Shown here piece after piece: positions 7,766-62,552 of a stretch of 64,000 nt of DNA. The stretch comes from a virus (lineage: Duplodnaviria > Caudoviricetes), in the IMG/VR virus record IMGVR_UViG_3300036824_000037, positions 64,817 through 128,816 of that record; one strand, given 5' to 3'. Made by a program: the position numbers and the translations under genes. The notes below the pieces were generated by a model, which saw nothing but the letters and a program-made list of their open reading frames with translations, did not search any database and was not told where the DNA came from. Every line of letters starts with the position of its first letter. Position 1 is the first letter of the stretch.

Positions 7766-8932
7766 TCACCGCCGCACCCACACGCCCGCGCCCCGCGGGT
7801 GCGCCTTCTCCAGCGGCCCGGCCACCCGCACATTCACCGCCAGCGGACCGTTGAGCGGGTGTAGTGAGTGCCGGATCTCGCCGCCCTCCACCACCCGGCC
7901 CTTGTCGTCCGTGAGCAGCAGGAATCCGCCGGGATTGAAGTCCGGCTCCCGCGAGAGGATGTCCGCCGCGACCTGGAGCATCGGCTCCGAGACGGGCCTC
8001 GGGATGTGCACCGCCAGCAGCGACCCGACCTGCTTGAAGCCCTCCGGCGGCTTCTTGCCGACCGTCACCCCGGCGCGCGCCAGGCAGCTGCGGGAGTGCT
8101 CGCGCAGCAACGTCTCGGCCGCGCCGTCCGTCTTGAGTACCCGGCGCCACGAGCAGTGCGAGCATCGGGCGTGGTAAGCGCCAGTTGCCGTGGAGGCGTT
8201 CGTGAGGGCGTCGGAGATCCGCTTCGCCATGCCGGTCACCGCCTCGTGCAGCGCCTCCACGTCCGAGGCGAGCGTCCCGCGCGGATACACGGTGCACTGC
8301 GGGTCGCCCTCGTTGTGCACCAGGCAGAACACGCCCCGCTCGCCACTGGCCGGGACCTTGGCGCACGGCTGCCGCATCGGCTCGCAGCCGCACGACGTCC
8401 ACCGGCCGTGAGCCGAGAACCCGAAACAGTGGTGCGCCCGCGCGGTCGCCGGCTTCGTGCTGGCCGCCGCCAGTTCCCCGGCGCAGCGCGAGCACCCGAA
8501 CTGAGCGACGTGCACGCCGTTGATGTGGTGCGACTCGTGCGCCAAAGCCTCCCGCTCATCCGCACTCGGCCGGTACGGCACGACCTGCGCGCACCCGTAA
8601 TGCGCCCGGTGCGGCCCATAGGCGACGACCCGCACCAGCGCCGGATCGATCTCGCCGGACAGGCCGTCAGCGTCGAGCGCGGCCAACTCGTCGAGGTCTT
8701 CGAGCCCGCACACAGGACACTGGCCGGGCGCCGGGTCTGGGGCCTTCAGCTCCCAGCCCGGCGGCGACCACTGCGGCGTTGGCGAGGGCTCAACACTCCA
8801 CGGCCGCCTTGCGAACAGTCCGCCGGCCGCCGACCGCAGCCACTCCCAGATCGCGGCCATCCGCCCCGTGGCGATCAGCCACAGCGACACCACGGCCTCC
8901 AACGCGACGAGGGCGGCGATCGCGAGGTTCAT
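7766..8932 (-). CDS. membrane-anchored multi-Zn-finger hypothetical protein
   Basis: N-terminal TM helix; CPVC, CSRC and CSHC motifs. Confidence 0.6.
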   Translation of the reverse strand: MNLAIAALVALEAVVSLWLIATGRMAAIWEWLRSAAGGLFARRPWSVEPSPTPQWSPPGWELKAPDPAPGQCPVCGLEDLDELAALDADGLSGEIDPALVRVVAYGPHRAHYGCAQVVPYRPSADEREALAHESHHINGVHVAQFGCSRCAGELAAASTKPATARAHHCFGFSAHGRWTSCGCEPMRQPCAKVPASGERGVFCLVHNEGDPQCTVYPRGTLASDVEALHEAVTGMAKRISDALTNASTATGAYHARCSHCSWRRVLKTDGAAETLLREHSRSCLARAGVTVGKKPPEGFKQVGSLLAVHIPRPVSEPMLQVAADILSREPDFNPGGFLLLTDDKGRVVEGGEIRHSLHPLNGPLAVNVRVAGPLEKAHPRGAGVWVRR

Positions 8933-8968
8933 TGCCCACCCCAAACGCGCGTTCCAGGCGTGGCCTGG

Positions 8969-9361
8969 TCACTCATCACTTTCCTCCGCTTCAAGCAGCG
9001 ACTCCTCCACGGTCGCGCCCATGGCCCGCAGCGCCTGCACCGGGTCCGCCGCGAGCACGCACCCGCACGGCAGCGCACGCACCACAGCGCCGGCCATGTT
9101 CACCCGGAACGCGCCGTGATCCACGCTGTCCGGGTGCTCCGGCGGCGGCGGGGAACGCAGTTCGCAGCCCTCCACCGCCACATCCTCAGCCGGCTCGCCG
9201 CACTGCGGGCATACGAGCCCCGACGACGCCGGTGTGAGCGTCACGGTCCGCGTCGCCGACTGGCGCCCCGTCGCGTACCGGGCGAGCAGGCCCGCGTCCT
9301 CGGCCTCGAACGGCGCCGAGAACGAGGCGGACAGCGAACCCGCGCGGATCCCGTCGGTCAC
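8969..9361 (-). CDS. Zn-ribbon hypothetical protein
   Basis: CPQC ... PCGC. Confidence 0.6.
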   Translation of the reverse strand: MTDGIRAGSLSASFSAPFEAEDAGLLARYATGRQSATRTVTLTPASSGLVCPQCGEPAEDVAVEGCELRSPPPPEHPDSVDHGAFRVNMAGAVVRALPCGCVLAADPVQALRAMGATVEESLLEAEESDE

Positions 9362-48237: not shown

Positions 48238-49665
48238 TCACCCCGCGATCGGTGTCACGGCCGGCGTGTCCGCGTTCCCGATCCGCGCCATCAGCGCGCC
48301 CAGGCCCGCGACCAGGTCGTCGTCGACCTCGGGCAGCAGGTGCCCGTACCGGTCCTGCGTGATCTGGATCGACTTGTGGCCCAGCCGCCGGGAGATCGCG
48401 AGCAGCGGCGCCCCCGACGCGATCAGCAGCGCCACATGGGTGTGGCGCAGGTCGTGCACGCGCGGGATCTGCTCGAGCATCCCCGGGTGCCCGCACCACA
48501 CGATCTGCTGCGCCGTCAGCACGCTCAGCCCCCGCCGTCCGATCCCCGCCGCATGGTCGGCGCCCCGGCACGAACCGCACCGCGCCGACCTATATAAGGC
48601 CGGGCGCCAACGGCGGGTGTAGAAGGTGGAGTGCGTCCAGCGGCCCCCGTTCGGACCGGTGAACACGAGATCCTTCTTGCCCTTGCCTGCAAGATAGGGC
48701 AGCGCCATGTCCACCTGGTCGCCGTTGAGCCCGACCCGCCGCAGCGCCGCCTTCGTCTTTGGCGCGCCGAGATACCAGGACCCGTCGGCGTGCTGCTTCC
48801 ACGCCCGCCACACCCGGAACGCCGGCCGGCGCGCCATCACCTCGAAGTCGCGCACCTGCAGAGCGGCGCCCTCGTTGAACCGCAGCCCGGTGCCGACCAG
48901 CCACTGCGCGAAGTCGCGGGCGTCGGGGTCGGTGAACTGGCCGAGCAGCAGCCCGACCTCCTCGGGGGAGAGGAACACCATCTCCTCGTCGCCCTCCCCG
49001 TCCTCCAATGAGGGCAGGTGTTTGGAGGATTCGGCGCAGGGGTTGCGGGTGCGCAGCGGTGCTTCGCGGTCCACCGCCGTCTGCATGATCGAGTACATGA
49101 GGCCGTGCAGGTTGCGGATCGTCTTGGGCGACAGCGGTTCGCGCAGCCACACCGGCTCACCTGACGGCGACTCGTCCGCGTCGGGGTCCGTGATGCCCGC
49201 GCGCAATCCGGCGATCCACGCGCCGAGACTCTGCGGGCTGATGCTTTCCGGGTCGCGCACGTCCATCTCGCCGAACGCGGGGATCAGATGGTTGTCCAGG
49301 ATGCGGCGGTAGCGGCCCGCGGTGCCCGACTCCAAACCGGAGGCGACGCCGTCCAGCCACCGACTGGCGAACTCGGCGAAGGGCAGCGGCGGCCGGGCCT
49401 GAGCCTTGGCCAACTCCGCGCGGCGTCGCTCCAGCAGCGCCGCATCGACATACCCCACCCCGGGCACGTAGTTCGCAGGCCACTGATGCCCGTTCGCCTC
49501 AAGCGCCGCCTTGAACGCTTTCGCGTGCTTCTCGGTGCGCTGCGGCCCCTTCGCGGGGTTGAACGTCTCGGTCTTCTGCCCGCCGGTGCGGACGCCGCCG
49601 AGACGGAACTTCACGTCCCACACGGTGCCGCCGTCGGCCAGGGTGCGCGGTTTCAGGCTCGCCAT
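48238..49665 (-). CDS. int: tyrosine integrase
   Basis: TGLRFNE, PKT, HDLRHTH, RLGH, RYGH catalytic set. Confidence 0.95.
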   Translation of the reverse strand: MASLKPRTLADGGTVWDVKFRLGGVRTGGQKTETFNPAKGPQRTEKHAKAFKAALEANGHQWPANYVPGVGYVDAALLERRRAELAKAQARPPLPFAEFASRWLDGVASGLESGTAGRYRRILDNHLIPAFGEMDVRDPESISPQSLGAWIAGLRAGITDPDADESPSGEPVWLREPLSPKTIRNLHGLMYSIMQTAVDREAPLRTRNPCAESSKHLPSLEDGEGDEEMVFLSPEEVGLLLGQFTDPDARDFAQWLVGTGLRFNEGAALQVRDFEVMARRPAFRVWRAWKQHADGSWYLGAPKTKAALRRVGLNGDQVDMALPYLAGKGKKDLVFTGPNGGRWTHSTFYTRRWRPALYRSARCGSCRGADHAAGIGRRGLSVLTAQQIVWCGHPGMLEQIPRVHDLRHTHVALLIASGAPLLAISRRLGHKSIQITQDRYGHLLPEVDDDLVAGLGALMARIGNADTPAVTPIAG

Positions 49666-49717
49666 GGCCGTCATCATGCCCGCGCGAACCGGGCGAAAGA
49701 ACCCCGTTTTACCCACT

Positions 49718-49920
49718 CGTGATGTAGGACGTGCTGTAGAGAATCGGCCCTCGCTTGGATTGGTGCCGTTTCCCCTGGTGGAACCTATCAACCTGTGGTG
49801 CGCGAGGGGGGAGTTGAACCCCGATCCCTGTGCAGGTCAGCAGGTGGGTGGAGCTTCTGCTTTCGAAGTCTATCGACGTTTGTCGAGGTCTGTGCGGCCC
49901 CGTGATGTACGGTACAGCAC
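49718..49920. mobile_element. attP: attP; core 49796..49822 resembles the 3' end of an actinobacterial tRNA-Leu
   Basis: Minus strand GGGGTTCAACTCCCCCCTCGCGCACCA; arm-like GTG(A/C)TGTA at 49719, 49731, 49902 and inverted at 49913. Confidence 0.85.
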
Positions 49921-49955: not shown

Positions 49956-49999
49956 GAAAAAGGGCGCCCCGCCCGGCCCGTGTGGGCCAAGCGGGGCGC
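49956..49999 (-). terminator. intrinsic terminator of the late operon
   Basis: GC-rich hairpin followed by TTTT on the minus strand. Confidence 0.7.
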
Positions 50000-50008
50000 G
50001 TAGACGTG

Positions 50009-50914
50009 TCAGGCGTTGCGGCGGGGCAGCCAGATGTTCCCGAGGATCAGCGGCAGCAGACCGCCGGGCGGCCCCTGGGGTGCTTTTCTGGGGGTGCTCG
50101 CGTCGGTCGCGGTGATGTCCGGGGTGAGGACCGGGGGCGGCGTGGGACTGGGCGTGGGGCTGCTCGGCGCGAGTGTCGCCGTGGGTGTGTCGCTGACGAT
50201 CGGCCCGGCTGTCGGGGACGCGCTGCCGCTGGGGCTTGGTGACGGTGACGCGGCGGGCTGTTCGCACACGAGCGCCTGGCGTCCGTTGATCGTCTCCGGG
50301 GTGGGGCTGTATCCGCTCGGGCACGCCGGGCCGGGTTGCCCTTGCGCGCCTTGCGGACCTGGCGGCCCAGCGGGGCCAGCCGGCCCTTGTTCGCCGACGC
50401 CGGGCGCACCGCTCGGCCCGGCACTCCCTTGGGGACCTGGCGGCCCGCTCGGGGCCGGGTGAACGCTCATGTAGTTGCCGACCGCAGTGGCGACCTGCGC
50501 GTCCGACGGTGGCGGACCGGGCGACGGCGGATGCTCGATGAGATACGCGGCCACCACGGTCGTCAGCGCGTCCGTGCTGACGCTTGGCTGTGGCGGGTGC
50601 TGCGCGAGATACCCGTCGACCGCCGCCTGCACCTGCGCGTCCGACGGTCCGGGGCCTTGGGGCCCGGCGGGTCCGGCCTGTCCGATAATCTGCGCGGGCG
50701 GTGGCGCCGACGGTGTGATGCCGTGCGAGGTGAGCTGGTGTTCCGTGGTCAACAGGGCCGACGCGAACTGGTCGTTCGTGACCTTCAGCGCCGCGATCTG
50801 TTGCGCCGCGGCGCGCTCCTGAAGCAGCAGGAACACGATCAGCCCCACGACCACGACCGCGATGAGGCCGCCCAGCGCCCAGGCCGTACTCAGTCCCCGT
50901 CGCGACAACGTCAT
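50009..50914 (-). CDS. membrane-anchored collagen-like repeat protein (lysis-associated)
   Basis: N-terminal TM, coiled coil, (Gly-X-Y)n, duplicated PSDAQV..AV..Y motif. Confidence 0.8.
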   Translation of the reverse strand: MTLSRRGLSTAWALGGLIAVVVVGLIVFLLLQERAAAQQIAALKVTNDQFASALLTTEHQLTSHGITPSAPPPAQIIGQAGPAGPQGPGPSDAQVQAAVDGYLAQHPPQPSVSTDALTTVVAAYLIEHPPSPGPPPSDAQVATAVGNYMSVHPAPSGPPGPQGSAGPSGAPGVGEQGPAGPAGPPGPQGAQGQPGPACPSGYSPTPETINGRQALVCEQPAASPSPSPSGSASPTAGPIVSDTPTATLAPSSPTPSPTPPPVLTPDITATDASTPRKAPQGPPGGLLPLILGNIWLPRRNA

Positions 50915-50915
50915 C

Positions 50916-51368
50916 TCAACGGATGCCTTTCGCCGTGAGTAGCGCCGTCACCCACGCGCCGAGCAGTGCCGCGACCACCGCGCCCACCACCGTGAACACG
51001 GTGATCTTCAGTTGGCGGGACCACTCCGTGCGCTTGGCCGCCTTCTGCTCGAGCTCGGTGCGCACCGCCTTGACCTCGGCCTTGAATTCCGCCCGTAGCG
51101 CCTCGATCGCCTTCGCGAGGTCGTCGTCCCGCGCGACCAGCGCCGCGCGCCGCTCGAGCGAGGTCTTGTCGACCCGGGCGAACGCCGCACTGGTGTCGGT
51201 TTCCAAGTGCTTGACGTCGTCCGCGAGCGCCCGGTGCTCGGACCCCCACAGCTCGGTGGGCACCATCGCCTTGGCGAGCCCGGTGATGCGGTCGTCGGTG
51301 GCGCGCTGGTCCCTCTCGATGCGGTCGAACCGGCGGGAGATCTCCCCGGGGGTCATCTCGTCGGCCAC
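50916..51368 (-). CDS. coiled-coil protein with C-terminal TM (holin-like accessory)
   Basis: Position after the endolysin; C-terminal TM. Confidence 0.65.
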   Translation of the reverse strand: MADEMTPGEISRRFDRIERDQRATDDRITGLAKAMVPTELWGSEHRALADDVKHLETDTSAAFARVDKTSLERRAALVARDDDLAKAIEALRAEFKAEVKAVRTELEQKAAKRTEWSRQLKITVFTVVGAVVAALLGAWVTALLTAKGIR

Positions 51369-51423: not shown

Positions 51424-52329
51424 CTAGTAGAGGTCCGCGCCGACGACGCCGGTGCCGGACTCGAAGACGAGGGAGAGCTTGTTCGCGTCCGCGGTCAGCG
51501 GGATGCTGGTCGCCCCGTCGGTGGACGCGACGGTGTAGGTCTTGATGCTGTTCCAGCCTTTGGCGCTGAAGCTGAAGATCGCGACCCGCACCTGCGCGGT
51601 CCCGAAGTCGTTCGCCAGGGTGAGCGTGCAGCCGCCGCCGAGTACCGCGGCCGGGGGTGTGACGACTCGCGCGGCGCCCTGCTCCAGATCGATGTGCATC
51701 TCGTTCCTCCACTCGCGCGACGCCGCAGCGACGACCGCAGGATTGGGCAGTCGTCCGGGCATCCATTGCCCGTAGTCGGCGGCCATCGCCTGGTTCACGT
51801 CGACCTGCACGCCGCCGATCGTCGCGGACCCGGTCTGGCGGATGGTGGCGCGCCCGTCCCACTGGCCGCCGGACCAGGCGAGGGTCTGCCACGCCCACTG
51901 GGTGGCGCCGGCGTCGAGCGCGGTTTTGAGCGGGTAGTAGCCGCCATATTCGCCAGCCTGGGACCAGCCGAGCACGCTGTCGGCGCCGGCCAGGTACGCC
52001 AGGACTGCCGCTTCCTGGGCGGGGGTGACGTCCCAGTCGGCGCTGAAGTAGATCGGGCGCCCGGACGGCATGCCTGCGGCTGCGGCCTGCTCGAGCGCGA
52101 GTTGTGCGTCGGCGACGCCGCCCGCGTAGCCGCGCAGCATGTCCTGGGCGCCGTACTCCCAGTTGCTGACGACCCAGATGCCGTGCGCCGCGAGCGACTG
52201 GGCCTCGGCGGGCGTGAGATTCTTCGTCGCGTCGCGGCTGAGGTAGCGGCAGGCGAAGGTGTAGCCGGCTGCGGCGATCGCGGCCGGGTCGGGCTTGGTC
52301 CAGGCGTAGTCGATGCCGAGCACCGTCAC
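51424..52329 (-). CDS. endolysin, DUF1906/Rv2525c-like glycoside hydrolase
   Basis: GIDYAW, FACRYLS, KNLT, PIYFSADWD, WQTLAWS. Confidence 0.88.
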   Translation of the reverse strand: MTVLGIDYAWTKPDPAAIAAAGYTFACRYLSRDATKNLTPAEAQSLAAHGIWVVSNWEYGAQDMLRGYAGGVADAQLALEQAAAAGMPSGRPIYFSADWDVTPAQEAAVLAYLAGADSVLGWSQAGEYGGYYPLKTALDAGATQWAWQTLAWSGGQWDGRATIRQTGSATIGGVQVDVNQAMAADYGQWMPGRLPNPAVVAAASREWRNEMHIDLEQGAARVVTPPAAVLGGGCTLTLANDFGTAQVRVAIFSFSAKGWNSIKTYTVASTDGATSIPLTADANKLSLVFESGTGVVGADLY

Positions 52330-52622
52330 TGCGCTCCACCTCCGGCCTGTTCGTGAGCGTCAGCGATGTGCTCGGCTGTGATCCTCGCGGGCACCGTTGG
52401 ATGGTGTTTGCGGCACGCTTTGTACGGTGTGCCGGCCACGGGGTGCGTGCCGGGTCGCCAGCAGAACCGGGGGTGGTTCACGTGGCAGGTGTGGTGGTAC
52501 CAGAACGCGACCGCGGCGGCGGGGATCGAGAATTCCGTGAGGCACGAACCGAAACCGGACCAAAACCCCGACCAGTAGCTCGGGCCGTCCAGGCCGAGGA
52601 CGTGCGCGAGCCAGTGGGTCAC
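52326..52622 (-). CDS. small membrane protein with Cys/His C-terminus (holin candidate)
   Basis: FWSGFG, TM, CHV...CWR...CRKHHP. Confidence 0.65.
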   Translation of the reverse strand: MTHWLAHVLGLDGPSYWSGFWSGFGSCLTEFSIPAAAVAFWYHHTCHVNHPRFCWRPGTHPVAGTPYKACRKHHPTVPARITAEHIADAHEQAGGGAQ

Positions 52623-52629
52623 CTTGACG

Positions 52630-53175
52630 TCACCGCGCGGCGGCGGCCTTCGCCGCGGCTTGGATCATGTGCTGGTGAATGGCGTCGACACGCGCCCGCG
52701 CCTCGGCCGCTACGTACGGGTCGCGGATCACGACAACGGTGTTGTCCTGCCTGGCCTCGCCGGAGTCGGACCAGTTCGTGGACCCGGTCACGACGTCGAT
52801 CCCGTCGATAATCAGCACCTTGAGATGCATTATGGCGTTCTTCTCGCTACGGCCGGTCGCCACCGAGTTCGCCGGGAATCCCGCCTTGGCCAGCAGCGCC
52901 TTCTCGTGCACGCCCGCCGCCTGGCTTGAGTCGAGCGTGAGCTGCACGAACACGCCCGCGTCGTCGAGCTTCGCGTGCATCGCCTCGGTGAGCGCGTCGT
53001 CATCGAACCCGTACATCGCGCACACCAGGGACTGGCGCGCGGATGTGACGAGATCGACGAGGGCCGCGTGGACCTGGTCGACGGGGCTGTAGAGCGTGCG
53101 TAGGTTCGCCGGGTAGCCGGCCGGGTAGCCGCCGCTCTTGTGCTTGTCGAGGTCGGCGAGGCTTGCCAGCGCCAT
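52630..53175 (-). CDS. phospholipase D-family protein, single HKD motif
   Basis: [25 protein letters not shown]. Confidence 0.88.
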
Positions 53176-54533
53176 CAGAGCATCCCCGCGAGGGCGTTCA
53201 ACAGGAGCTGTTCGACGTCCACGGACGGGCCCGCGGGTGGGATCTTGAAGTGCCCGAGGTGACCGTACACGGTCATCGCGCCCCCGGCGATGCCCGGATA
53301 GTCGGTGTCCCAGCCGCACGCGTAGTGCAGCGCGCCGCCGCTGGTGAGGAGTTCGTTGCTGGGGATGTACGCGGGGTCCTCGTTGGCGTAGCCGCACACC
53401 CAGATCCCGGCGGTACCGCCGTAGGTGGCGCGCAGGTAGACGGCATATCCGGAGACGAGTTCCCCGCCGGTCAGGGCGAGGCGCAGCGCCGGGGCGCCCT
53501 GCAAAGTCCAGGTCTGCACGGGAACGTTCACGCTGGTCGCGAAGCTGTTCGCGTCGATCTGCGCGATCATCGCCTGGGCGTGGCGCCGATAGTAGCTCGG
53601 CAGGCCCAGGTTGCCTTCGCGGGCCACGTAGTCGGCGCGCACCGCGGCGAGGTTGCTCGGGCTGGTGGTGATGTCCAGCGGCACCGTCAGGTCGGTATAC
53701 GCGGTGTCGATCGGACCGGTGACCGAGCGGCCCGGGTGCGCCGCCGCCGTGAGGACCGCGGCGCCGAGGCTCTGCCCGAGCGACGACACGAGGGCGAACG
53801 AGCGGGCGCCGACGGGGTCCTGGTCGCCGGCCGCGCCGAGCAGGAACTGGGCGAACACGCCGGGCTTCTGCGCTTCGATGTACGCGCACGCGGCGCCGGG
53901 ATAGTCCGGGTCGGCGAGGGTCTGCCAGCCCCCGGCGACGGGGTGCGCGCCGTATCCGAACAGCACCGCGAGCAGGTGCCCGGCCGTGTCGCGGGCGCAG
54001 AGCATGGGCACGGTCGTCTCGACGTACGGCAGTCCCTCGCGGTTCGCGCTGAAGCTCTGCGTGGTGCTCTGGTAGTCCAGGGTGCACGGGATCTGCGTCG
54101 CGGCGAGAGCCGCCTGCACTGCGGCGACGGCGCCGTTCAGCACCTGCGCGGTGTACGCCTGCAACGCCGTGTCCGCGGTGGACCCCGGTACCACGTTATA
54201 TGCGATCAGCGGGTCGAGTTCCCCCGCGACGGCGCCCCCGTTGTGGGTGTGCGTCGCCGTGATGACCAGATCCTCGTGCCCGATCGGCGTGCCGGGCGGC
54301 CCCATCGGCTCGACCTGCGTGCGGATCGCCAAGTTCAGGGCGCGGGGGATCGCGAGCGTGTCGAGCGACACGATCACGTTGGGCCAACCCGAATCCCACA
54401 GGATCGTGCACCGGGCATACAAGGGCGCGTTGCTGCCGGTGGACAGGCGCGGGGTGTCGCTGCCCAGGCCGGCCAGTGGCGTGCCGGGCGGCGGGGTGAT
54501 GTCGACCTTGGCTGTCGAGATCGCGAGAGGCAC
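53175..54533 (-). CDS. neutral/alkaline ceramidase-like Zn amidohydrolase
   Basis: [47 protein letters not shown]. Confidence 0.82.
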
Positions 54534-54565: not shown

Positions 54566-55105
54566 TCAGGTGTGCATCCACATGCATTGCATGTTGCTGG
54601 CGATGGTCGATACGACCGCGCTGGACAGGGCGCCGCCGGAGTTCTGGGTCGCCCACGCTTCGACGTAGTCGCCGACACTGAGCTGAATCAGTGCCGATGT
54701 TTCGATGCCCGGGTCGTTGAACGTCCCTGCGGCGAGCCCGGCATTCCAGCTATACGTGTACGCCGTACCGTTTTTATACAGCTGGATGGTGCGGTTCCCT
54801 GTGGCGTTCGCCGCGAAGACAACTCCCGCTTTGCAGTAGTACCAGCCGCTGACCTGCGCGGTGTACCGGCTGTTGTTGACGCTGTTGCTGTGGCCGCCGT
54901 AGGTGTCGAGCTGCTGCGCGTCGTACGTGATCGCGGCGGGCGTGCCGTTGGCGAACGACTGCGAGACGCCCTGCGTGATGACACACAAAGGCACATTGAG
55001 CAGGTAAGTCAGCGCGTCGCGGGTCGCGTTGAAGTACGCGCCGGCTTCGATCTCGCCGACCGTGAACGTTCTCGGGCTCGGGACGGCGAGGTTCGCCACG
55101 GGCAC
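54566..55105 (-). CDS. minor tail protein (C1q/beta-sandwich-like)
   Basis: VPSPRTFTVGE N-terminus; SRYTAQVSGWY; GDYVE. Confidence 0.75.
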   Translation of the reverse strand: MPVANLAVPSPRTFTVGEIEAGAYFNATRDALTYLLNVPLCVITQGVSQSFANGTPAAITYDAQQLDTYGGHSNSVNNSRYTAQVSGWYYCKAGVVFAANATGNRTIQLYKNGTAYTYSWNAGLAAGTFNDPGIETSALIQLSVGDYVEAWATQNSGGALSSAVVSTIASNMQCMWMHT

Positions 55106-55157: not shown

Positions 55158-58100
55158 CTAATACGAGACGCGGGTCGTGGCCGCTATCTGGGAGGCGGCA
55201 GTGTCGCCAGCCGGCAGCGGATCGGTCACGGACTCCCCCGCGACGTGGTTGTTCGCCAGGTTCGCCGCAAGGGTGATCACGCAACTGCTGTAGCCGGGCA
55301 CGGCGGCCGCCACGGACAGCACCTGCGGGCACGCCTGGAACGTGCTCGCCGACGCGGCCTGCTCCAGTTGCAGCCCGTCGGCCTGCCACGTCCACGCCCC
55401 GGCGGGGGCGGTCGCGGTCAGCAGGAGCCCGACCTGCGCCCACACCGTGCCCGCGGGTGCTGTCGCGGTCACCGTCATCCGCGTCCACGTCGCTGTGGGC
55501 GACCCGGTCAGCACGACTCCGCTGCTGTTGGTCTGCGCGAGGCTCGTGCCGGTCGCGTCGCGGAACTGCAAGTAGCTCTGCACGGTGGGGTTCGCGCCGG
55601 TGGTCGCGGACCGGGTGTACTCGCTCGCGGTGTACGCGAGCCCCGCCGTGACCGGCACCTTGAGGATGTACAGCAGGCCCTTGGTGGGCACGACGCCGCC
55701 CGCGACGGAAACCTGCCACACATTCGCGCCCTGGAACGCCGTCCCGGACGCGGCGACCGTCGGCGTGCCCACGTCGCCGGCCAGGCCGAGCGGTGTCCCG
55801 GACGCGCCCGCCGCGAGCGGGAGCGCGCCCTCGCCCGCGGTCGCGATGTTCGGGTGCAGGAGGTTGCGGCCCTCGAAGGCCGCGGTGCCCGCGCCGATCC
55901 ACAGCAGGTCGCCCGTGTTCCAGTCGGATGCGGGCGCGTTGGCTTTCACGTCGGGCAGCGGACCGACGGTGATGGTGTTCGTGCCCGAGCTCGACGCGGC
56001 CGCGAGCGTCGTGGACACGGCGCCCAGCACGCTGGACGCGTCCCAGGTCGTGGGGTCGGTGTAGCCCACCGGCAGCGGCTCGCACACCGTGGTCCCGGCG
56101 GCGTGCGTGAACCCGAAATTGCTGGTGAACGTCAGCGTCGCGCTGCTGTACCCGGGGTTGTTGGCGGGGATCCCGGTCGCGGCGAGCGTCATCGTCTCCT
56201 GCCGCACGGTCCCCGCCTCGAACACCAACTGATACCCCTGCGGCAGGGACTGGCTCAGCGCGTTGACCGCCGAGTCGGGCAGTGCGTTGATGCTCGCCTG
56301 GTTCTGCCCGGAGGCCGCCTGCGCGTGCAGGGTCGTGTGCAAGGCGCCGAGCGTCCAGTAGGTCGCCAGGTCCGCGGGCGAGCACTGCAGGTGCACCTCG
56401 ACGCGGCCGGTCGCCGGATCCCAGTCCCAGGCCACCGACTCCACGAAACAGTCGATCTGGATGCTCGCCGCACCCGGCAGCGACGGCGGCCGGCGCATCA
56501 CCCGGATCCGGCTGCCGATCTCCAGTTGCAGGCACACCGCGAACAGGCCCGGCACCGCGGACGGGCACAGTTGCAGGTCGGAGACACGCATCCGGGCGCT
56601 GCGGTACTGCTGGATCAGATAGTTGGAGGCGTCGACCGCCTCCGTGTACAGCAGCGGGTTGATGGTGCGCTGCAGGATCCGCGGGAAGTACGTGGACTGC
56701 GACGTGATGTCGGCCGCGGTCGCGACCTGCCCGGACGCGTAGTGCGTGACCTGCGCGAGATTGAACAGGTGGGTCGAGTCGTAGTCCGGGGTCAGCGACT
56801 CGTACGGCCATTCGCCCGCGGCCGTGTTCTCGCCGAACACGAACTGTGGGGTGCCCTGGTTGTAGCGGGAGGCGCGGGACTTGAACGTGAGCGCGCCGCC
56901 GGTCGACGCGTAGACGTTCCCGGCCTCGGTGAGGGCGACCGCGTCGCATGCGTCGAGGGCGGTCGCGCCCGTCAGGTCGGTCGCCGGCCCCATCTGCTGG
57001 GTCTGGCCCGTGTCGATCGCGGTCGCGCCGGTGTAGCCGACCCAGGTCAGGATCCGTTTGATGCGCGCGCCGGACGACTCGCCCTGCGACGCGGTGCGCC
57101 AGGACGCGTACAGGTTCGCGATCTGGGTGGACGTCAGTGCCGCCGGGATCTGCGCGGCGAACGCCAGATCCCCGGAGATGCCGTCGTTGTACTGGTTCGG
57201 GCCGAACTGTACGGCGGCGCCCAGCACGTCGGCGGTGATCCCGGTGGGGTGCGCGTCGCCGGCCGAGGCTGCGGTCCGGACCGTCCCGTCGAGCGACGTG
57301 GTGAGCGTCAGTCCGTCGGCGGAGAGCGACACGGTCACCAGGTGCCAGTTGCCGTCGGCGTAGTTGTTCGTGAACTGGGTTGATGCGCCCGTCCCGAGGG
57401 CGTTGAAAACGTTGCAGCTGATGTATCCGGCACCGGCCGCGTTCATGTTGATCACGCATGAGCTTGAGTTCGTCGCCAGCCAACCGGGCGGGTATGCCGC
57501 CCACAGCATCACCGTGTTCGACGGCGTCGTGGGCACGCGGAACGCGATGATCCGGGTCCAGCCGCCGGACTGGGGCGGCCCCGGGGTGTTCGCTGTCTTG
57601 TGCAGCGACACGAACGTGCACGCGTTCTGAACGCCGCTGGACGCGGGGTTGCTGAACGTGGCGACCGGGCCGGGTGTGCCGACGAATGCGCTGCCGGGGT
57701 TGGTGGAGGTGACGGTGGAGCCGAAGGTCACCGTGCCGGCGCCGAATGGCGAGTTCTCGACCGGCGCCGCGGCGCGCTTGCCCGTGGTGTCCGCGCAGGA
57801 GGTGGCGCTGGCCGGGTCTGCCAGCTGATAGAAGAAGTCGGGGCCGAGGGCGAGGATTTCGGCGACGAAGGGCGCCGGCAGGGTGTACTGGGCGAGTTGC
57901 GCGAGCGCGTCGACGCCGATGATGTTGACCAGGCCGTAGGTGCCGGTCATGGTCCACGCCTGCGGCCAGCGCTCGACCATGCCCGAGTAGATGTAGTAGG
58001 TCGGCCCCGGGTCCGCCCATGCCGTCGCGGCGGCGGCCTGCTCCATCTGCCACCCGGTCAGATAGAGGATGTTGGTCGCGGTCGTGGACGCCGGGGAGGT

Positions 58101-58886
58101 GATCGCGAGCGACGGGCGGCCCCACACGGCCCCGGCGGGGGCGGTCGCGGTGACGGTGGGCCGCGCCCACGAGGTGACGACGGGGATCGTGAGGACGCTG
58201 CCCGCAGAGGTGGACAGCAGGGTCCCGGTGACGCTGTACCAGTTGATCGACAGGGTGACCTGCACGGTGGCGTCGGCCGAGGAGGCGCGCGACCCGTACA
58301 GGCTGAACGTGTACTGCGACCCTGCGGTGACCTGCACGCAGTCCGCGGCCGGCCCGGTGGGGGCGCCTATGGGGGCGACACCCGCGTACAGGATTCCGTT
58401 CGCGGAGCTGGTGCCGGACGGGGTGGTCCACGCGAGCGCCGTGCTCTGCCCGGACGCGGGCGCGGTCAGGTACAGGCCCTGCGCCAGCGACCCGTTCGTG
58501 CGGGTCTGGTACCAGTAGTTGCCGACCGTGTCCGTGGCCGGGTTCAGCAGCGCCGAGCCGGTGGCGATGATCCGGGGCAGCAGGTTCGCGGTGGGCGCGG
58601 TCTGGGCGCGGATGCGGCAGCCCCGGTACGGCACCACGTTCGGGTAGTTGGCACTGCCCGTGTTGGACGGGTCGAGCGCGCCGTCCTTGTCCTCGAGGCC
58701 CGCGCGCCAGGTCCCGGACGGGTTGGTGTCCAGTTCGTACTGCCGACCGTGCTGGGTGGATCCGGGGAATTTGGTGCGGGCGCTCTGGTCGGTCCAGTAC
58801 GGCGGCAGGGTGGCCTGGTTCGGGGGCGCGTTGAACGCGATCTCGTAGGCGAGCACCGGGGGGAAGGTGGAGATCGTGCCCGCCAC
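55158..58886 (-). CDS. large minor tail/baseplate protein with CBM-like and LamG-like domains
   Basis: Follows the tape measure; two NLL...W.R.TVTATAPAG...Q.EQ modules; ADGNWHLV; ESSGARIKRIL. Confidence 0.85.
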   Translation of the reverse strand: MAGTISTFPPVLAYEIAFNAPPNQATLPPYWTDQSARTKFPGSTQHGRQYELDTNPSGTWRAGLEDKDGALDPSNTGSANYPNVVPYRGCRIRAQTAPTANLLPRIIATGSALLNPATDTVGNYWYQTRTNGSLAQGLYLTAPASGQSTALAWTTPSGTSSANGILYAGVAPIGAPTGPAADCVQVTAGSQYTFSLYGSRASSADATVQVTLSINWYSVTGTLLSTSAGSVLTIPVVTSWARPTVTATAPAGAVWGRPSLAITSPASTTATNILYLTGWQMEQAAAATAWADPGPTYYIYSGMVERWPQAWTMTGTYGLVNIIGVDALAQLAQYTLPAPFVAEILALGPDFFYQLADPASATSCADTTGKRAAAPVENSPFGAGTVTFGSTVTSTNPGSAFVGTPGPVATFSNPASSGVQNACTFVSLHKTANTPGPPQSGGWTRIIAFRVPTTPSNTVMLWAAYPPGWLATNSSSCVINMNAAGAGYISCNVFNALGTGASTQFTNNYADGNWHLVTVSLSADGLTLTTSLDGTVRTAASAGDAHPTGITADVLGAAVQFGPNQYNDGISGDLAFAAQIPAALTSTQIANLYASWRTASQGESSGARIKRILTWVGYTGATAIDTGQTQQMGPATDLTGATALDACDAVALTEAGNVYASTGGALTFKSRASRYNQGTPQFVFGENTAAGEWPYESLTPDYDSTHLFNLAQVTHYASGQVATAADITSQSTYFPRILQRTINPLLYTEAVDASNYLIQQYRSARMRVSDLQLCPSAVPGLFAVCLQLEIGSRIRVMRRPPSLPGAASIQIDCFVESVAWDWDPATGRVEVHLQCSPADLATYWTLGALHTTLHAQAASGQNQASINALPDSAVNALSQSLPQGYQLVFEAGTVRQETMTLAATGIPANNPGYSSATLTFTSNFGFTHAAGTTVCEPLPVGYTDPTTWDASSVLGAVSTTLAAASSSGTNTITVGPLPDVKANAPASDWNTGDLLWIGAGTAAFEGRNLLHPNIATAGEGALPLAAGASGTPLGLAGDVGTPTVAASGTAFQGANVWQVSVAGGVVPTKGLLYILKVPVTAGLAYTASEYTRSATTGANPTVQSYLQFRDATGTSLAQTNSSGVVLTGSPTATWTRMTVTATAPAGTVWAQVGLLLTATAPAGAWTWQADGLQLEQAASASTFQACPQVLSVAAAVPGYSSCVITLAANLANNHVAGESVTDPLPAGDTAASQIAATTRVSY

Positions 58887-58916: not shown

Positions 58917-61900
58917 TCAGCCGCCCAGGCCGTTGCTGGAGTTGCGGCCCTGGTATTGCAGGACCTCGGTGCGCAGCACGTCCACGAGCTTGCGGTCGGT
59001 GATCGCGGAGCCCGCGACGTTGACCGTGTAGTAGTTGTTGACCACTCTCGTGCCGCCGCCGGGGACGTACCCGGCGCTGCCCGAAGCGTTCAGGCCCGCC
59101 AGCACCGCCGGTTTGATCATGCTGGTGGGGGTGATGTAGCCGTCCGCGCCGAACTGCATCAACTCCGGGCCGTCCTCGCCGACCAGCCCGATCTGCCCCG
59201 CCCGGAACGGGCCGCCCGCGGCGTACGCCTGCACGCCCGGGATCTTCTGGACATCGGATGGCGCGCCCGACGACACGATGTCGACGTGCACGGTGGCGTG
59301 CGAGGAGTTGATCCCGGCGAGCAGCGCGTTCAGTCCGTTGATCGCGGGCGCGGTGTTCACGTTCACGGTCGTGCCGTACTGCGGCTTGATCAGCCCGAGC
59401 GACCCGAGGAACCGGTCCACGTCGCCCTTGCTGATTCCGAACTTCGCCCCGAGCGCCTCGATCTGCTGCACCTGGGTCTGCATCGTCGAGGTCGCGGCCC
59501 CGGTTGCCACGCCCGCCGCGCGCTGCTTGTTGTAGTAGTCGACGATGTCGTTCGCGGCCTGCTGGAACGCCTGCTGGTTCGCAATGCCCGCCGTGGTGTT
59601 GCTGGCGATGGTGTTGCCGTTGTCCTTCAGCGACTGCGTCAGGTTGATCACGTCGGAGTTGAACTGCGTCAAAGACTGGGACACGCCGAGCGTGTTCGTC
59701 ATGTCCTTGATTTTGCCGTCGGTGGTCTGCGCCACATCCCCGGCGTGGCTCATCGCGTCCTCGTACTGGGGGAACATGCGGGCCGCGGCCTGCGCGCTCA
59801 GGCCGTTCTCCTGGAACGCCTGGGTGATCGCCTCGAACTGCGTCTTCGCGTCGCCCGCGTGCCCGTCCTTCACCATCTGGCCCAGCGCCTGGTCCAGTTG
59901 CGTCAGGCCCGCCGGCTCCCCCATGGGGTTGCGCCCGGTCTCGCTGAAGGCGTACAACGCGCCGAGTTGGGCCGCGAACTGCGCGACGCTGCCCTGCGCG
60001 CTGGCGGAGCCCTTGGCGACCAGGTCCAGCTCTTCGCTGACCTTGCCGAAGGTGTCGGCGGTGTGGTCGCCGGCCCCGTTCATCGCGGAGATCACGCCCG
60101 TGAGGACCGCGATCCCACCGATTGCGGCGCCGACCACACCGCCGACCAGCCCGAAGTCGCCGAGCACCCCGGCGAGCTTGCCCGCCTTGCCGGCTGCCTT
60201 CTCCGCCTCCCCGGCGCTCGCCGTCTCGGCCTCGGCCATGGTCCCCAGGGCGCCCTCGGCGCCGGACGCGGCGACGGCGACGCCCTCGGTTTCGGTCCTG
60301 AGCGCGCCCAGCTTGGTCGCGCCCGGCCCGGCGCCGAGCCCGTCGAGCGCCGTGGAGAGTTTCGCGGTCTCGGACTCGGTGTTCTGCGCCGCGGCCCCGA
60401 TACCGGTCAGGCCGACCTCGAACAGGGCGAGCTGCCCCGGGGACTGCTCCGAGACCCTGGCGATGTTCTCCAGCTCACCGCCGAACTCGCCGAGCCGGAT
60501 GGGGTCGGCGGCCTGGGTGATGGCGCGCTCCTGCATCCCGAACAGCACCAGTTGCCCGGGCGCCTGCGACGCGGTCTCCTCGATCGCGGCGATCTCCTTG
60601 TCGACCTTCGCCACGCCGTCCGCGGCCTGCGCGAGGCCCGCGAGGTGTGCGCCGTCGAACATCGTGAACTTGTCGAGGGTGGTGGTTGCCGACGTCTTGA
60701 GGTCGTCGAACGCGCCCCGAAGGCCCTTGATCGCGGCTTGCCCGTCGGCTGCGTCCCGCCCGGTGTACGCGGTCTTGAGCGCCCCGACCGCGCCGCTGAT
60801 CTCCTTGGCCTGGTTCAGCGGGAACTGCACGATCGCGGTGGCGAGTCCCACGACGCTCTTCGCGGCGTTGATCCCGCCGAGGATGGCCATCTTGGTGCCG
60901 AGCAGCCCGATCGCGCCGACGGCGAACACCTCGACGAGGGTCTTGTGGCTGGCAAGGAAGTCGGCGAACCATTTGAGGGGCGGTTCGACCACGTTGACGA
61001 GGATCTTCCCGACCAGGTCGAGGGCGCCGAACAGGCCGTGGCCGAGCAGTGACACGGTGGGCGTGACCGCGGAAACGATCTTCGTGAAGGCCTGGTAGGC
61101 GCCCTCGCCGAAGCGGATGAAGTTCTGTGCGACGGGTTCGAGCTTCTTGCCGTCGGCGACGAGGTCGTCGAATATCTTGCGGGCGTCCTGGCCGTAGCGC
61201 TGCAGCGCGGTCAGGTTCTGCGGGCCCTGGCGCGCCTGGGCGTTGAGCATCGCGTTGCCCATGTTGGGGGTCGGCCCGGACGGCGCGGTGAGCTGCTTGC
61301 CGGTGAACCCGGATGCGATCTGCTGCAGCCCGAGGCCCGCGGACTGGAAGAACGGGCCGAGTTTCGCCTCGGCCTGGGTGATGAAGCTGGACAGCATGGG
61401 CAGCGCCTTGGTGCCCAGTTCGATCCCGAGGTTCTCCGCGCCCGTCTTGATCTGGTCCATCTGGAACGCGAAGGTGTGCCTCACGCCCTCCCAGTCCGAC
61501 TCGAACTTGGTCGTCGTCGAGTCGGCGGTGACCTTGTTGAACTTGTCCTGCAGTCCACCGAGGTCCTGCATCAGTGCGAGGATCGCCTTGTCGGACCGCC
61601 CCCCGCCGAAGATCTTCGCTATCGCACTGTCGGCCTCGGTGCCCTTCACGCCCGCGTCGTTCAGCGCGGTCTTGAGGTGTGTGAGCGCGACATAGATGCC
61701 GTCGGGCTTCTGCAGGTCCAGCGCAAGTTGGTTCTGCGTGATCCCGCTCGCCTTGAGGACCTGCGTCATCGCCTCGGTGGAGCCCTTGACGTCCGAGGAC
61801 GCCACCCCGAGCCCCTCGAGCATCTTCGCGGCCTGATGGCTGGGCGTCGCCATCATCGACAGGCCCATGGTCAGGCGGGTGCTGGCCTCTTCGGCGGAGT

Positions 61901-62552
61901 TGCCCCGGTCGGTCAGGTAGCCGATCGCGGACCCGATCGAGGTGATGGAGATGCCCATCGACGCCGCCGTGGGCGCCCAGTTCTTGATCGAGACGTTGAA
62001 GTCCTGGAAGTGGGTGTCGCCCTGCCCGACGATCGCGTTGAGCTGCGCCATCGTCTGCGCGGCCTGCGACGCAGGCACGTTGAACGACTTCATGACCGAC
62101 GACAGGCTGTAGGTCGTGTTCTCGAGCGACGCCCCAGAGATCTGCGCTTCCTCGGCGGCGTACTTGACCACCTGCAGGCTCGTGGCCATGTCCATGCCGG
62201 TGGAGATCGGGTGGTACAGGGCCTCGGCCATCTGCGTGCCGGTGAATCCGACCTGTGTGCCGAGTTTCAGGACGGAACTGGTCGCCGCGTCCACGGCGGC
62301 CTTCGGGGCACCGGCGGCGGTGGACAGCCGGGTCATCTGGGTCTGGAACTCGGATGCGGCCTTGACCGAGGCAACCGCGATGCCGCCGACGGCGATCCCG
62401 ACGCCGAGGCCCACCTTCGCGACCGCGCCGAGCGCGGCGGACATGCGTCCGCCCATCGACTCCGCGTCCGAGGCGGCCTTTTTCAGTCCGGACGAGAACG
62501 GATCGGTGACCGAATCAAGGACTATATACAGGTCCGCGATGGAGCCGGTCAC
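58917..62552 (-). CDS. tape measure protein (TP901-type)
   Basis: 1211 aa, Ala/Gly-rich; ASTRL, AKIFGG; C-terminal YAAGG..VGEDGPEL. Confidence 0.93.
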   Translation of the reverse strand: MTGSIADLYIVLDSVTDPFSSGLKKAASDAESMGGRMSAALGAVAKVGLGVGIAVGGIAVASVKAASEFQTQMTRLSTAAGAPKAAVDAATSSVLKLGTQVGFTGTQMAEALYHPISTGMDMATSLQVVKYAAEEAQISGASLENTTYSLSSVMKSFNVPASQAAQTMAQLNAIVGQGDTHFQDFNVSIKNWAPTAASMGISITSIGSAIGYLTDRGNSAEEASTRLTMGLSMMATPSHQAAKMLEGLGVASSDVKGSTEAMTQVLKASGITQNQLALDLQKPDGIYVALTHLKTALNDAGVKGTEADSAIAKIFGGGRSDKAILALMQDLGGLQDKFNKVTADSTTTKFESDWEGVRHTFAFQMDQIKTGAENLGIELGTKALPMLSSFITQAEAKLGPFFQSAGLGLQQIASGFTGKQLTAPSGPTPNMGNAMLNAQARQGPQNLTALQRYGQDARKIFDDLVADGKKLEPVAQNFIRFGEGAYQAFTKIVSAVTPTVSLLGHGLFGALDLVGKILVNVVEPPLKWFADFLASHKTLVEVFAVGAIGLLGTKMAILGGINAAKSVVGLATAIVQFPLNQAKEISGAVGALKTAYTGRDAADGQAAIKGLRGAFDDLKTSATTTLDKFTMFDGAHLAGLAQAADGVAKVDKEIAAIEETASQAPGQLVLFGMQERAITQAADPIRLGEFGGELENIARVSEQSPGQLALFEVGLTGIGAAAQNTESETAKLSTALDGLGAGPGATKLGALRTETEGVAVAASGAEGALGTMAEAETASAGEAEKAAGKAGKLAGVLGDFGLVGGVVGAAIGGIAVLTGVISAMNGAGDHTADTFGKVSEELDLVAKGSASAQGSVAQFAAQLGALYAFSETGRNPMGEPAGLTQLDQALGQMVKDGHAGDAKTQFEAITQAFQENGLSAQAAARMFPQYEDAMSHAGDVAQTTDGKIKDMTNTLGVSQSLTQFNSDVINLTQSLKDNGNTIASNTTAGIANQQAFQQAANDIVDYYNKQRAAGVATGAATSTMQTQVQQIEALGAKFGISKGDVDRFLGSLGLIKPQYGTTVNVNTAPAINGLNALLAGINSSHATVHVDIVSSGAPSDVQKIPGVQAYAAGGPFRAGQIGLVGEDGPELMQFGADGYITPTSMIKPAVLAGLNASGSAGYVPGGGTRVVNNYYTVNVAGSAITDRKLVDVLRTEVLQYQGRNSSNGLGG

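Follow-up and report, generated by a model that had tools for sequence, protein, structure and literature searches.

What does a ceramidase-like enzyme do between the tail genes and the lysis genes of a tailed phage? The question is raised by a stretch of 64,000 nucleotides (nt; positions 64,817 to 128,816) that forms the second half of the 128.8-kb IMG/VR phage record IMGVR_UViG_3300036824_000037, and that is referred to below, over its whole length, as the window. A minus-strand gene, termed cer, is followed there by a gene of the phospholipase D (PLD) family, and an earlier account drawn from the letters of the DNA alone (the sequence-only reading) had taken the two products for one module that attacks lipids during lysis or entry. 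The analysis presented here favours a different function, namely that cer is a captured de-N-acylase of envelope glycoconjugates that would be expressed late and released at lysis. The probability of this reading is put at about 0.5; its timing, substrate and benefit are what we infer.

As a single sequence, the cer product matches the Pfam family PF04734 over residues 18-176, its N-terminal third, with a score of 23.9 bits, below the gathering cut-off of 32.1 bits; it has no match among PDB sequences and falls into no NCBIfam family. A family profile (A1) built from 30 sequences was therefore used for the PDB search, and it retrieved the P. aeruginosa neutral ceramidase PaCD (7e-11) as well as human nCDase (1.7e-8). 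The alignment obtained with the profile places the THTH, NR, HP histidine, GE and GYAN..Y motifs of cer on the residues with which PaCD binds Zn and performs catalysis, with H106/H108, R176, H208, E369, Y393 and Y400 (numbering of a 463-aa form; aa, amino acids) corresponding to the ATHTH, NR, H, AE and GYAN..Y of PaCD. These seven residues are each invariant in 45-47 of 47 homologues. The AlphaFold2 model of the protein has a predicted local distance difference test score of 94.5, and Foldseek matches it to neutral ceramidases at 4.6e-25. VIA alignment of model residues 10-463 with residues 1-483 of 2zws gives a Z score of 35.3 and a root-mean-square deviation of 3.1 Å over 388 aligned residues; the corresponding Z score for 4wgk is 32.4, and the next match, to an unrelated structure, drops to 3.7. 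The protein ends at the end of the PaCD catalytic domain (chain residue 483 of 646) and thus lacks the C-terminal Ig-like domain. The complete ceramidase motif set that the sequence-only reading had recognised in the 452-aa open reading frame is borne out by these alignments.

Pairwise ratios of nonsynonymous to synonymous substitution rates (dN/dS) among phage and chromosomal cer copies range from 0.25 to 0.34, and the catalytic residues are retained in every intact phage copy. The model and the alignments identify cer as a Zn amidohydrolase of the neutral-ceramidase fold, with a complete active-site set and predicted catalytic activity, and the substitution pattern indicates that it is under purifying selection. 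The start codon is taken to be the GTG at 54533, with the stop at 53175-53177, because relatives begin at the matching residue; this gives the length of 452 aa. An alternative ATG at 54566 would yield 463 aa and overlap the stop of the upstream tail gene, t179. The possibility that the longer form carries a twin-arginine (Tat) signal (..ERRPRV..) was rejected: the stretch forms the first strand of the catalytic domain, and what comes after it is not hydrophobic. A signal peptide is absent from both cer and the PLD-family protein, as had been noted before.

The gene recurs at the tail/lysis junction of at least nine phage contigs (L004, L009, L010, L012, L099, L101, L110, L121 and, as a pseudogene, L013), which answers the concern, voiced with the sequence-only reading, that all relatives might lack it at this position. 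A main clade with 74-82% identity, counted as eight further contigs, comprises the copies in L004, L009, L010 (= L098), L099, L101, L110 and L121. The copies in L012 (intact) and L013 (frameshifted), at 42-47% identity, form a second clade with the same placement, so that cer occurs in at least two phage clades that are distant from each other in the FastTree phylogeny. A t179 homologue lies directly upstream of cer in L004, L009, L010, L012, L101 and L110, and L121 has the same layout except for a 177-aa gene in the t179 slot, placed by position and not by sequence comparison. The downstream endolysin in L004, L009, L010 and L121 is GH25 or Rv2525c-like. Three contigs are cut within the gene: L099 starts inside cer and continues with an HNH-like gene and an endolysin, and in L101 and L110 the contig end falls within cer. 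The L013 pseudogene (7998-9284) is spread over three frames, just upstream of an endolysin that is Peptidase_C39-like plus Rv2525c-like.

The closest view of the locus without cer is provided by L118, a 129.6-kb ENA contig from a sibling of the window phage, in which the t176 tail gene leads straight to the PLD gene across a 21-nt spacer. Its proteins are 59% (tail), 46% (t179), 70% (PLD) and 54-59% (two membrane proteins) identical to those of the window. Since this sibling does without it, cer is an optional cargo gene, carried where the tail genes give way to those for lysis. Conservation of the cargo and of its flank differs among the phages: cer is 75-80% identical across them, versus 40-42% for the flanking t179 in L004 and L009, and t179 identity is about 77-79% in L010, L101 and L110.

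Chromosomal relatives of cer show 43-77% identity overall. No phage markers were found beside 79 chromosomal homologues from cultivated or metagenome-assembled-genome (MAG) Actinomycetota (43-63% identity), and the family is therefore mainly a cellular rather than a phage one. The 77% copy, on L001, nests within the phage clade in the FastTree phylogeny, and because of this the phage genes were in all likelihood captured from a widespread actinobacterial subfamily. The alternative that the L001 copy is itself a prophage remnant was rejected, as it is surrounded by ordinary genes for wall glycans and housekeeping, and its linkage to GtrA is shared by distant relatives.

The company kept by the chromosomal copies bears on the substrate. 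In Actinospica, the uncultured organism of L001, Dactylosporangium, Micrococcaceae and Microbacteriaceae, genes for GT2, GtrA, DUF2142/DUF6541 and DegT/GFO/Hexapep amino-sugar proteins lie within 8 kb of cer. The Actinospica copy ends a same-strand run of GT2, Hexapep acetyltransferase, DegT aminotransferase, GFO oxidoreductase, DUF2142-GtrA fusion and DUF2142 genes, and the same gene set surrounds the L001 and Dactylosporangium copies. The DUF2142 proteins span the membrane several times and belong to loci for cell-wall polysaccharides (PMC9746298). In the Micrococcaceae Arthrobacter, Paenarthrobacter and Sinomonas, cer follows a gene for a 900-aa GH25 muramidase with FG-GAP repeats, and GT2, GtrA and DUF6541 genes are found at 5-8 kb; Cryobacterium and a Microbacteriaceae MAG have DegT, GFO, GtrA, GT2, GH25 and DUF2142 genes near cer. 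To take the GH25 linkage as proof of a peptidoglycan substrate was rejected as too strong, most such loci being from Micrococcaceae. No lipid-related neighbours were found in the chromosomal contexts examined. About 22 of the 79 chromosomal members carry Tat signals; in the Arthrobacter genes a stop codon four codons before the start leaves no room for one.

The wider family comprises 15,694 cluster representatives at E <= 1e-3, and ESM Atlas holds 430-aa ceramidase-like proteins from archaea and Chloroflexota as well. Members are fused to Tachylectin and ConA-like lectin domains, to FG-GAP repeats, and to beta-lactamase-like and M15 D-Ala-D-Ala dipeptidase domains. Two such fusions give a hint that the wider family acts on cell-wall or sugar substrates: P0249 (731 aa, L120), a Tachylectin-propeller fusion whose catalytic domain is, over its full length, 43% identical to the phage enzyme, and P0329 (1206 aa, 6 cluster members), in which the ceramidase-like domain is joined to a beta-lactamase-like and an M15 D-Ala-D-Ala dipeptidase domain. 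Taken together, the wall-glycan genes, muramidases, lectin fusions and Tat export that accompany this branch argue for non-sphingolipid substrates.

The time at which cer would be made can be judged from its surroundings in the window, where the relevant genes all lie on the minus strand:

58917..62552, minus strand: tape measure protein, 1211 aa (PhageMin_Tail, 3.3e-21; 15 PHROG tape-measure families)
55158..58886, minus strand: large minor tail protein, 1242 aa (phrog_5313, 2.2e-73)
54566..55105, minus strand: t179, the last tail gene, a stand-alone fibre-tip-like domain of 179 aa (phrog_13989 virion structural protein, C-terminal part, 1.2e-15)
53175..54533, minus strand: cer, predicted ceramidase-fold Zn amidohydrolase, 452 aa, catalytic domain only (from fold and motifs)
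52630..53175, minus strand: single-HKD Nuc-like PLD-family protein, 181 aa (PLDc_2, 1.4e-15; Nuc 1byr, 7.5e-9)
52326..52622, minus strand: Cys/His-rich small protein, 98 aa (from sequence composition; its stop overlaps the endolysin start)
51424..52329, minus strand: endolysin, Rv2525c/DUF1906 glycoside-hydrolase-like (PF08924, 6.7e-26; phrog_13480 endolysin, 8e-34)
50916..51368, minus strand: lysis-cassette membrane protein, a 150-aa coiled-coil protein with a C-terminal transmembrane anchor (KD19 2.33 at residue 122)
50009..50914, minus strand: 301-aa protein with an N-terminal transmembrane segment and collagen-like repeats, the last late gene (KD19 3.05 at residue 13)
49964..49999, minus strand: intrinsic terminator closing the late operon (16-bp stem with 14 GC pairs, T run)
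48238-49791, minus strand: tyrosine integrase gene, just beyond the late-operon terminator

The genes of the tail-lysis run are separated by short gaps or joined by overlapping start and stop codons, and cer lies two genes upstream of the endolysin in the same operon. A scan with the sigma-70 consensus, which is weak evidence in high-GC actinobacteria, found no promoter-like site in 48-59 kb. The operon has a single strong terminator, located 3' of the lysis genes, and none around cer. The short or overlapping junctions and the lack of a promoter-like site place cer within the late operon, where, having no promoter or terminator of its own, it is most likely expressed late. The sequence-only reading had likewise set the amidohydrolase inside a tail-lysis operon, and gene order, overlapping codons and the single terminator agree with it. 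The DUF1906 endolysin that it described downstream is there, followed by two proteins with one clear transmembrane segment each; the 98-aa product, which it called a membrane protein, is instead Cys/His-rich and has no strong hydrophobic segment.

Several of these neighbours are shared with related phages. The 1242-aa tail protein has 55-59% identical counterparts in L009, L010, L101, L110 and L118. A 59% homologue of the 150-aa membrane protein occupies the same place in L118, and the 301-aa protein has a homologue in L118 and a collagen-like counterpart in L004, both in lysis regions. The transmembrane segment of the 301-aa protein is followed by collagen-like Gly-Pro repeats, and this product of the last late gene may be a spanin-like or wall-spanning lysis component. 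The 98-aa protein, encoded between PLD and endolysin, carries the pattern WYHHTCHV...CWRPGTHPV...CRKHHP, has no strong transmembrane segment and matched no family in Pfam, PHROG and NCBIfam searches; unrelated genes of 87-103 aa fill its slot in sibling phages. The order from tail to lysis genes is also the same in L118 and in L117, a Streptomyces prophage and a further sibling, where a TROVE/Ro60 gene comes immediately after PLD. Searches with tblastn of cer and of the 1242-aa tail protein against 50,697 GenBank phage records returned nothing, so that the window phage, L117 and L118 look like a large temperate actinophage lineage without a close relative among these records.

Whether cer and PLD act together is decided largely by the same comparison of phages. 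The PLD gene product scores 57.7 bits against PLDc_2 (cut-off 27) and has one HxKx4D...GSxN motif, and the cer stop overlaps the PLD start as TGATG in the window, in L004 and in L121; the single HKD motif and the overlap had both been described correctly. The two genes are separable, nonetheless. PLD occurs without cer in L117 and L118. A 155-aa Cys/His protein with HNH-like spacing fills the PLD slot after cer in L010 (9380-9847), L009 (11359-11829) and L099 (about 1326-1800), its start overlapping the upstream stop; the L099 form matches an HNH endonuclease PHROG at 5.9e-12. This protein may be a homing endonuclease that aids the spread of the cargo. In L012 the lysis-region genes follow cer directly, with neither PLD nor an HNH-like gene. 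Since the cer stop overlaps whichever gene comes next, TGATG reflects operon packing and not partnership.

The PLD family is very large and tightly conserved, with about 2,300 homologues of which many show ~70% identity. Among them are proteins from large chromosomal contigs of Streptomyces and Kitasatospora; the two homologue contexts examined are prophage or phage. In L004, L117, L118 and L121 the gene is near tail-end or lysis genes, and no close match was found among the 50,697 GenBank phages. By these comparisons PLD is an independent and much commoner Nuc-like resident gene, the usual occupant of the slot, and not one half of a coupled module. In the PDB its best match is the Nuc endonuclease 1byr at 7.5e-9, ahead of MitoPLD and NucT. 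It resembles Nuc of pKM101 (1BYR), NucT and MitoPLD/Zucchini in size and in the single HKD motif, and differs from this group in the absence of a signal peptide and in belonging to a very large prophage-borne actinobacterial family. That a nuclease is the best PDB match, and that an HNH-like gene takes the same slot elsewhere, hints indirectly at a nuclease rather than a phospholipase.

In the favoured reading, cer would have been taken by phages from the actinobacterial subfamily and kept as optional cargo at the tail/lysis boundary. The enzyme would be made late from the shared operon and, having no signal peptide, would gain access to the envelope only through the breach of the membrane at lysis, like a canonical endolysin. 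The chromosomal context, Tat export and the lectin fusion turn the search for its substrate away from sphingolipids and towards envelope glycans; nothing points to the ornithine or other amide-linked lipids that the sequence-only reading had suggested. The bond cut would thus be an N-acyl or N-acetyl amide in an envelope glycoconjugate and not that of ceramide or ornithine lipid, the probable target being a wall-glycan amino sugar or its polyprenyl-phosphate-linked precursor. By editing or stripping the wall decoration at release, the enzyme could destroy the receptor on debris or ease the access of the endolysin. A narrower and less likely version would make the cer subfamily the de-N-acylase that is missing from the GT2/GtrA/GT-C pathways of wall decoration in actinobacteria, where it would act on amino sugars linked to lipid or attached to the wall. 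Phages would have captured it on two or more occasions, to edit the receptor once lysis sets the enzyme free. If so, cer would be the amidase counterpart of viral receptor-destroying enzymes.

A number of observations weigh against a glycan-directed enzyme released at lysis. The closest solved relatives of cer are true ceramidases, which leaves room for a lipid substrate, and the L013 pseudogene shows the gene to be dispensable. Many chromosomal members, among them those of Micromonospora, Amycolatopsis and Leifsonia, lie outside glycan loci, and the GH25 linkage comes largely from one heavily sampled family, the Micrococcaceae. Corynebacterium glutamicum has a GalN-type pathway, and no cer-family member was found there. 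The nearest chromosomal copy and the Arthrobacter copies have no signal peptide, which suggests cytoplasmic action and fits poorly with a post-lysis role. It is these signal-less copies that keep alive a less likely alternative, in which cer serves lysogenic conversion or superinfection exclusion and acts in the cytoplasm of the lysogen or infected cell on a lipid- or nucleotide-linked wall-decoration precursor, altering the phage receptor in the manner of the gtr operons of enterobacterial prophages. Such cargo would be expected to look much as cer does: optional, host-derived, at a module boundary, and signal-less like the 77% chromosomal copy that adjoins GtrA and GT2. Wall decoration of the GT2/GtrA-like/GT-C type is, moreover, a known phage requirement (PMC9671496), and a 119-nt spacer upstream of cer in L004 could hold a promoter. 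The window copy, however, has neither a promoter-like site nor a terminator around it and lies on the late strand, where its codons overlap those of late genes, although the weakness of the sigma-70 scan in high-GC actinobacteria tempers the first point. GtrA and GT2 are also missing from the phage itself, as its 128.8-kb record gave no match to PF04138 or PF00535.

The remaining explanations fare worse. A joint lipid-attacking module, with cer cleaving amide-linked lipids such as ornithine lipids and PLD removing phospholipid head groups in lysis or entry, would account for the TGATG coupling in three phages, for the lipid amidases that are the nearest solved structures of cer and for the presence of MitoPLD, a cardiolipin hydrolase, among the PDB matches of PLD; it is nevertheless improbable, given PLD alone in two phages, cer with an HNH-like gene in three and with neither in L012, the indiscriminate overlap of cer with any following gene, the better match of PLD to Nuc, and chromosomal contexts devoid of lipid-related neighbours. 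An obligatory coupling of the two genes is thus not supported. Somewhat more improbable still is neutral hitch-hiking, in which cer would have spread with a neighbouring homing HNH endonuclease and have no role in the phage life cycle. The HNH-like gene after cer in three phages, the L013 pseudogene and the greater conservation of cer (75-80%) than of t179 (40-42%) in L004 and L009 are what such a history would leave, but the last does not extend to L010, L101 and L110; the dN/dS of about 0.3, the retention of the full catalytic set by each intact phage copy, the constant type of site across at least two distant clades, and the presence of cer where there is no HNH gene (the window, L004, L121, L012) speak against it. 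Receptor-modifying enzymes on phage tails are well known, and a virion-associated tail-tip enzyme that modifies or degrades a receptor glycan at adsorption would explain why cer is always the next gene where the tail genes end, in some phages with codons that overlap. Yet cer has no N-terminal domain for attachment to the tail, shares its start residue and length with cellular enzymes, and is missing from L118, which has the same tail proteins; that the amidase travels on the virion, as had also been suggested, is the least probable of the explanations considered.

Comparison with known systems sets the proposed release of a glycan-editing amidase at lysis in context. The catalytic-domain fold of cer is that of PaCD (2ZWS/2ZXC) and human nCDase (4WGK), the PF04734 enzymes, with Z scores of 35 and 32, and the Zn ligands (His, His, Glu, Tyr) and the catalytic His, Arg and Tyr are the same at aligned positions. 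Unlike these enzymes, with which it shares 18-19% identity, cer has no Ig-like domain, signal peptide or anchor, is phage-encoded, and has relatives in wall-glycan loci. No ceramidase-fold enzyme of a phage was found in PHROGs, where cer matches no lysis family, in GenBank phages or in the full-text literature searched, in line with the earlier remark that no phage ceramidase-type lysis protein is known to have been described; a ceramidase-fold search of the BFVD viral structure library matched only a giant-virus protein. Phage accessory envelope hydrolases are known, and within these resources none with a neutral-ceramidase fold was found described. The LysB protein of mycobacteriophages is a cutinase-like serine esterase (Ser nucleophile, alpha/beta-hydrolase fold) that cuts ester-linked mycolates and probably works, once the membrane has been breached, on an envelope layer other than peptidoglycan. 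cer resembles it as an extra hydrolase without signal peptide near the endolysin, and differs as a Zn amidase of unrelated fold that is optional within its phage group and whose hosts are probably not mycolate producers. The gtrABC lysogenic conversion cassettes of enterobacterial prophages are host-derived glycan-editing cargo between late genes and integrase. cer shares that origin and position, but is a single hydrolase within a late operon of a phage without GtrA and GT2.

A concrete parallel is the PpgS/Rv3632/Rv3779 pathway of arabinogalactan decoration, which includes a missing polyprenyl-P-GalNAc de-N-acetylase and makes the wall decoration required by corynephage Cog (PMC9671496; PMC3485146). 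Chromosomal cer members lie beside genes for GT2, GtrA-like and polytopic membrane proteins, the same three-component design, and the lipid-linked N-acyl sugar of such a pathway would be a chemically ceramide-like substrate. The likeness is put forward as a hypothesis, with C. glutamicum, which has such a pathway and no cer-family member, as the counter-example. Through its phage copies, a large and uncharacterised branch of prokaryotic members of the ceramidase superfamily comes into view. Should this branch include the de-N-acetylase that has long been sought for lipid-linked amino sugars, a gap in the picture of how actinobacteria build their walls would be closed, and a handle would be gained on the receptor chemistry of a large temperate actinophage lineage.

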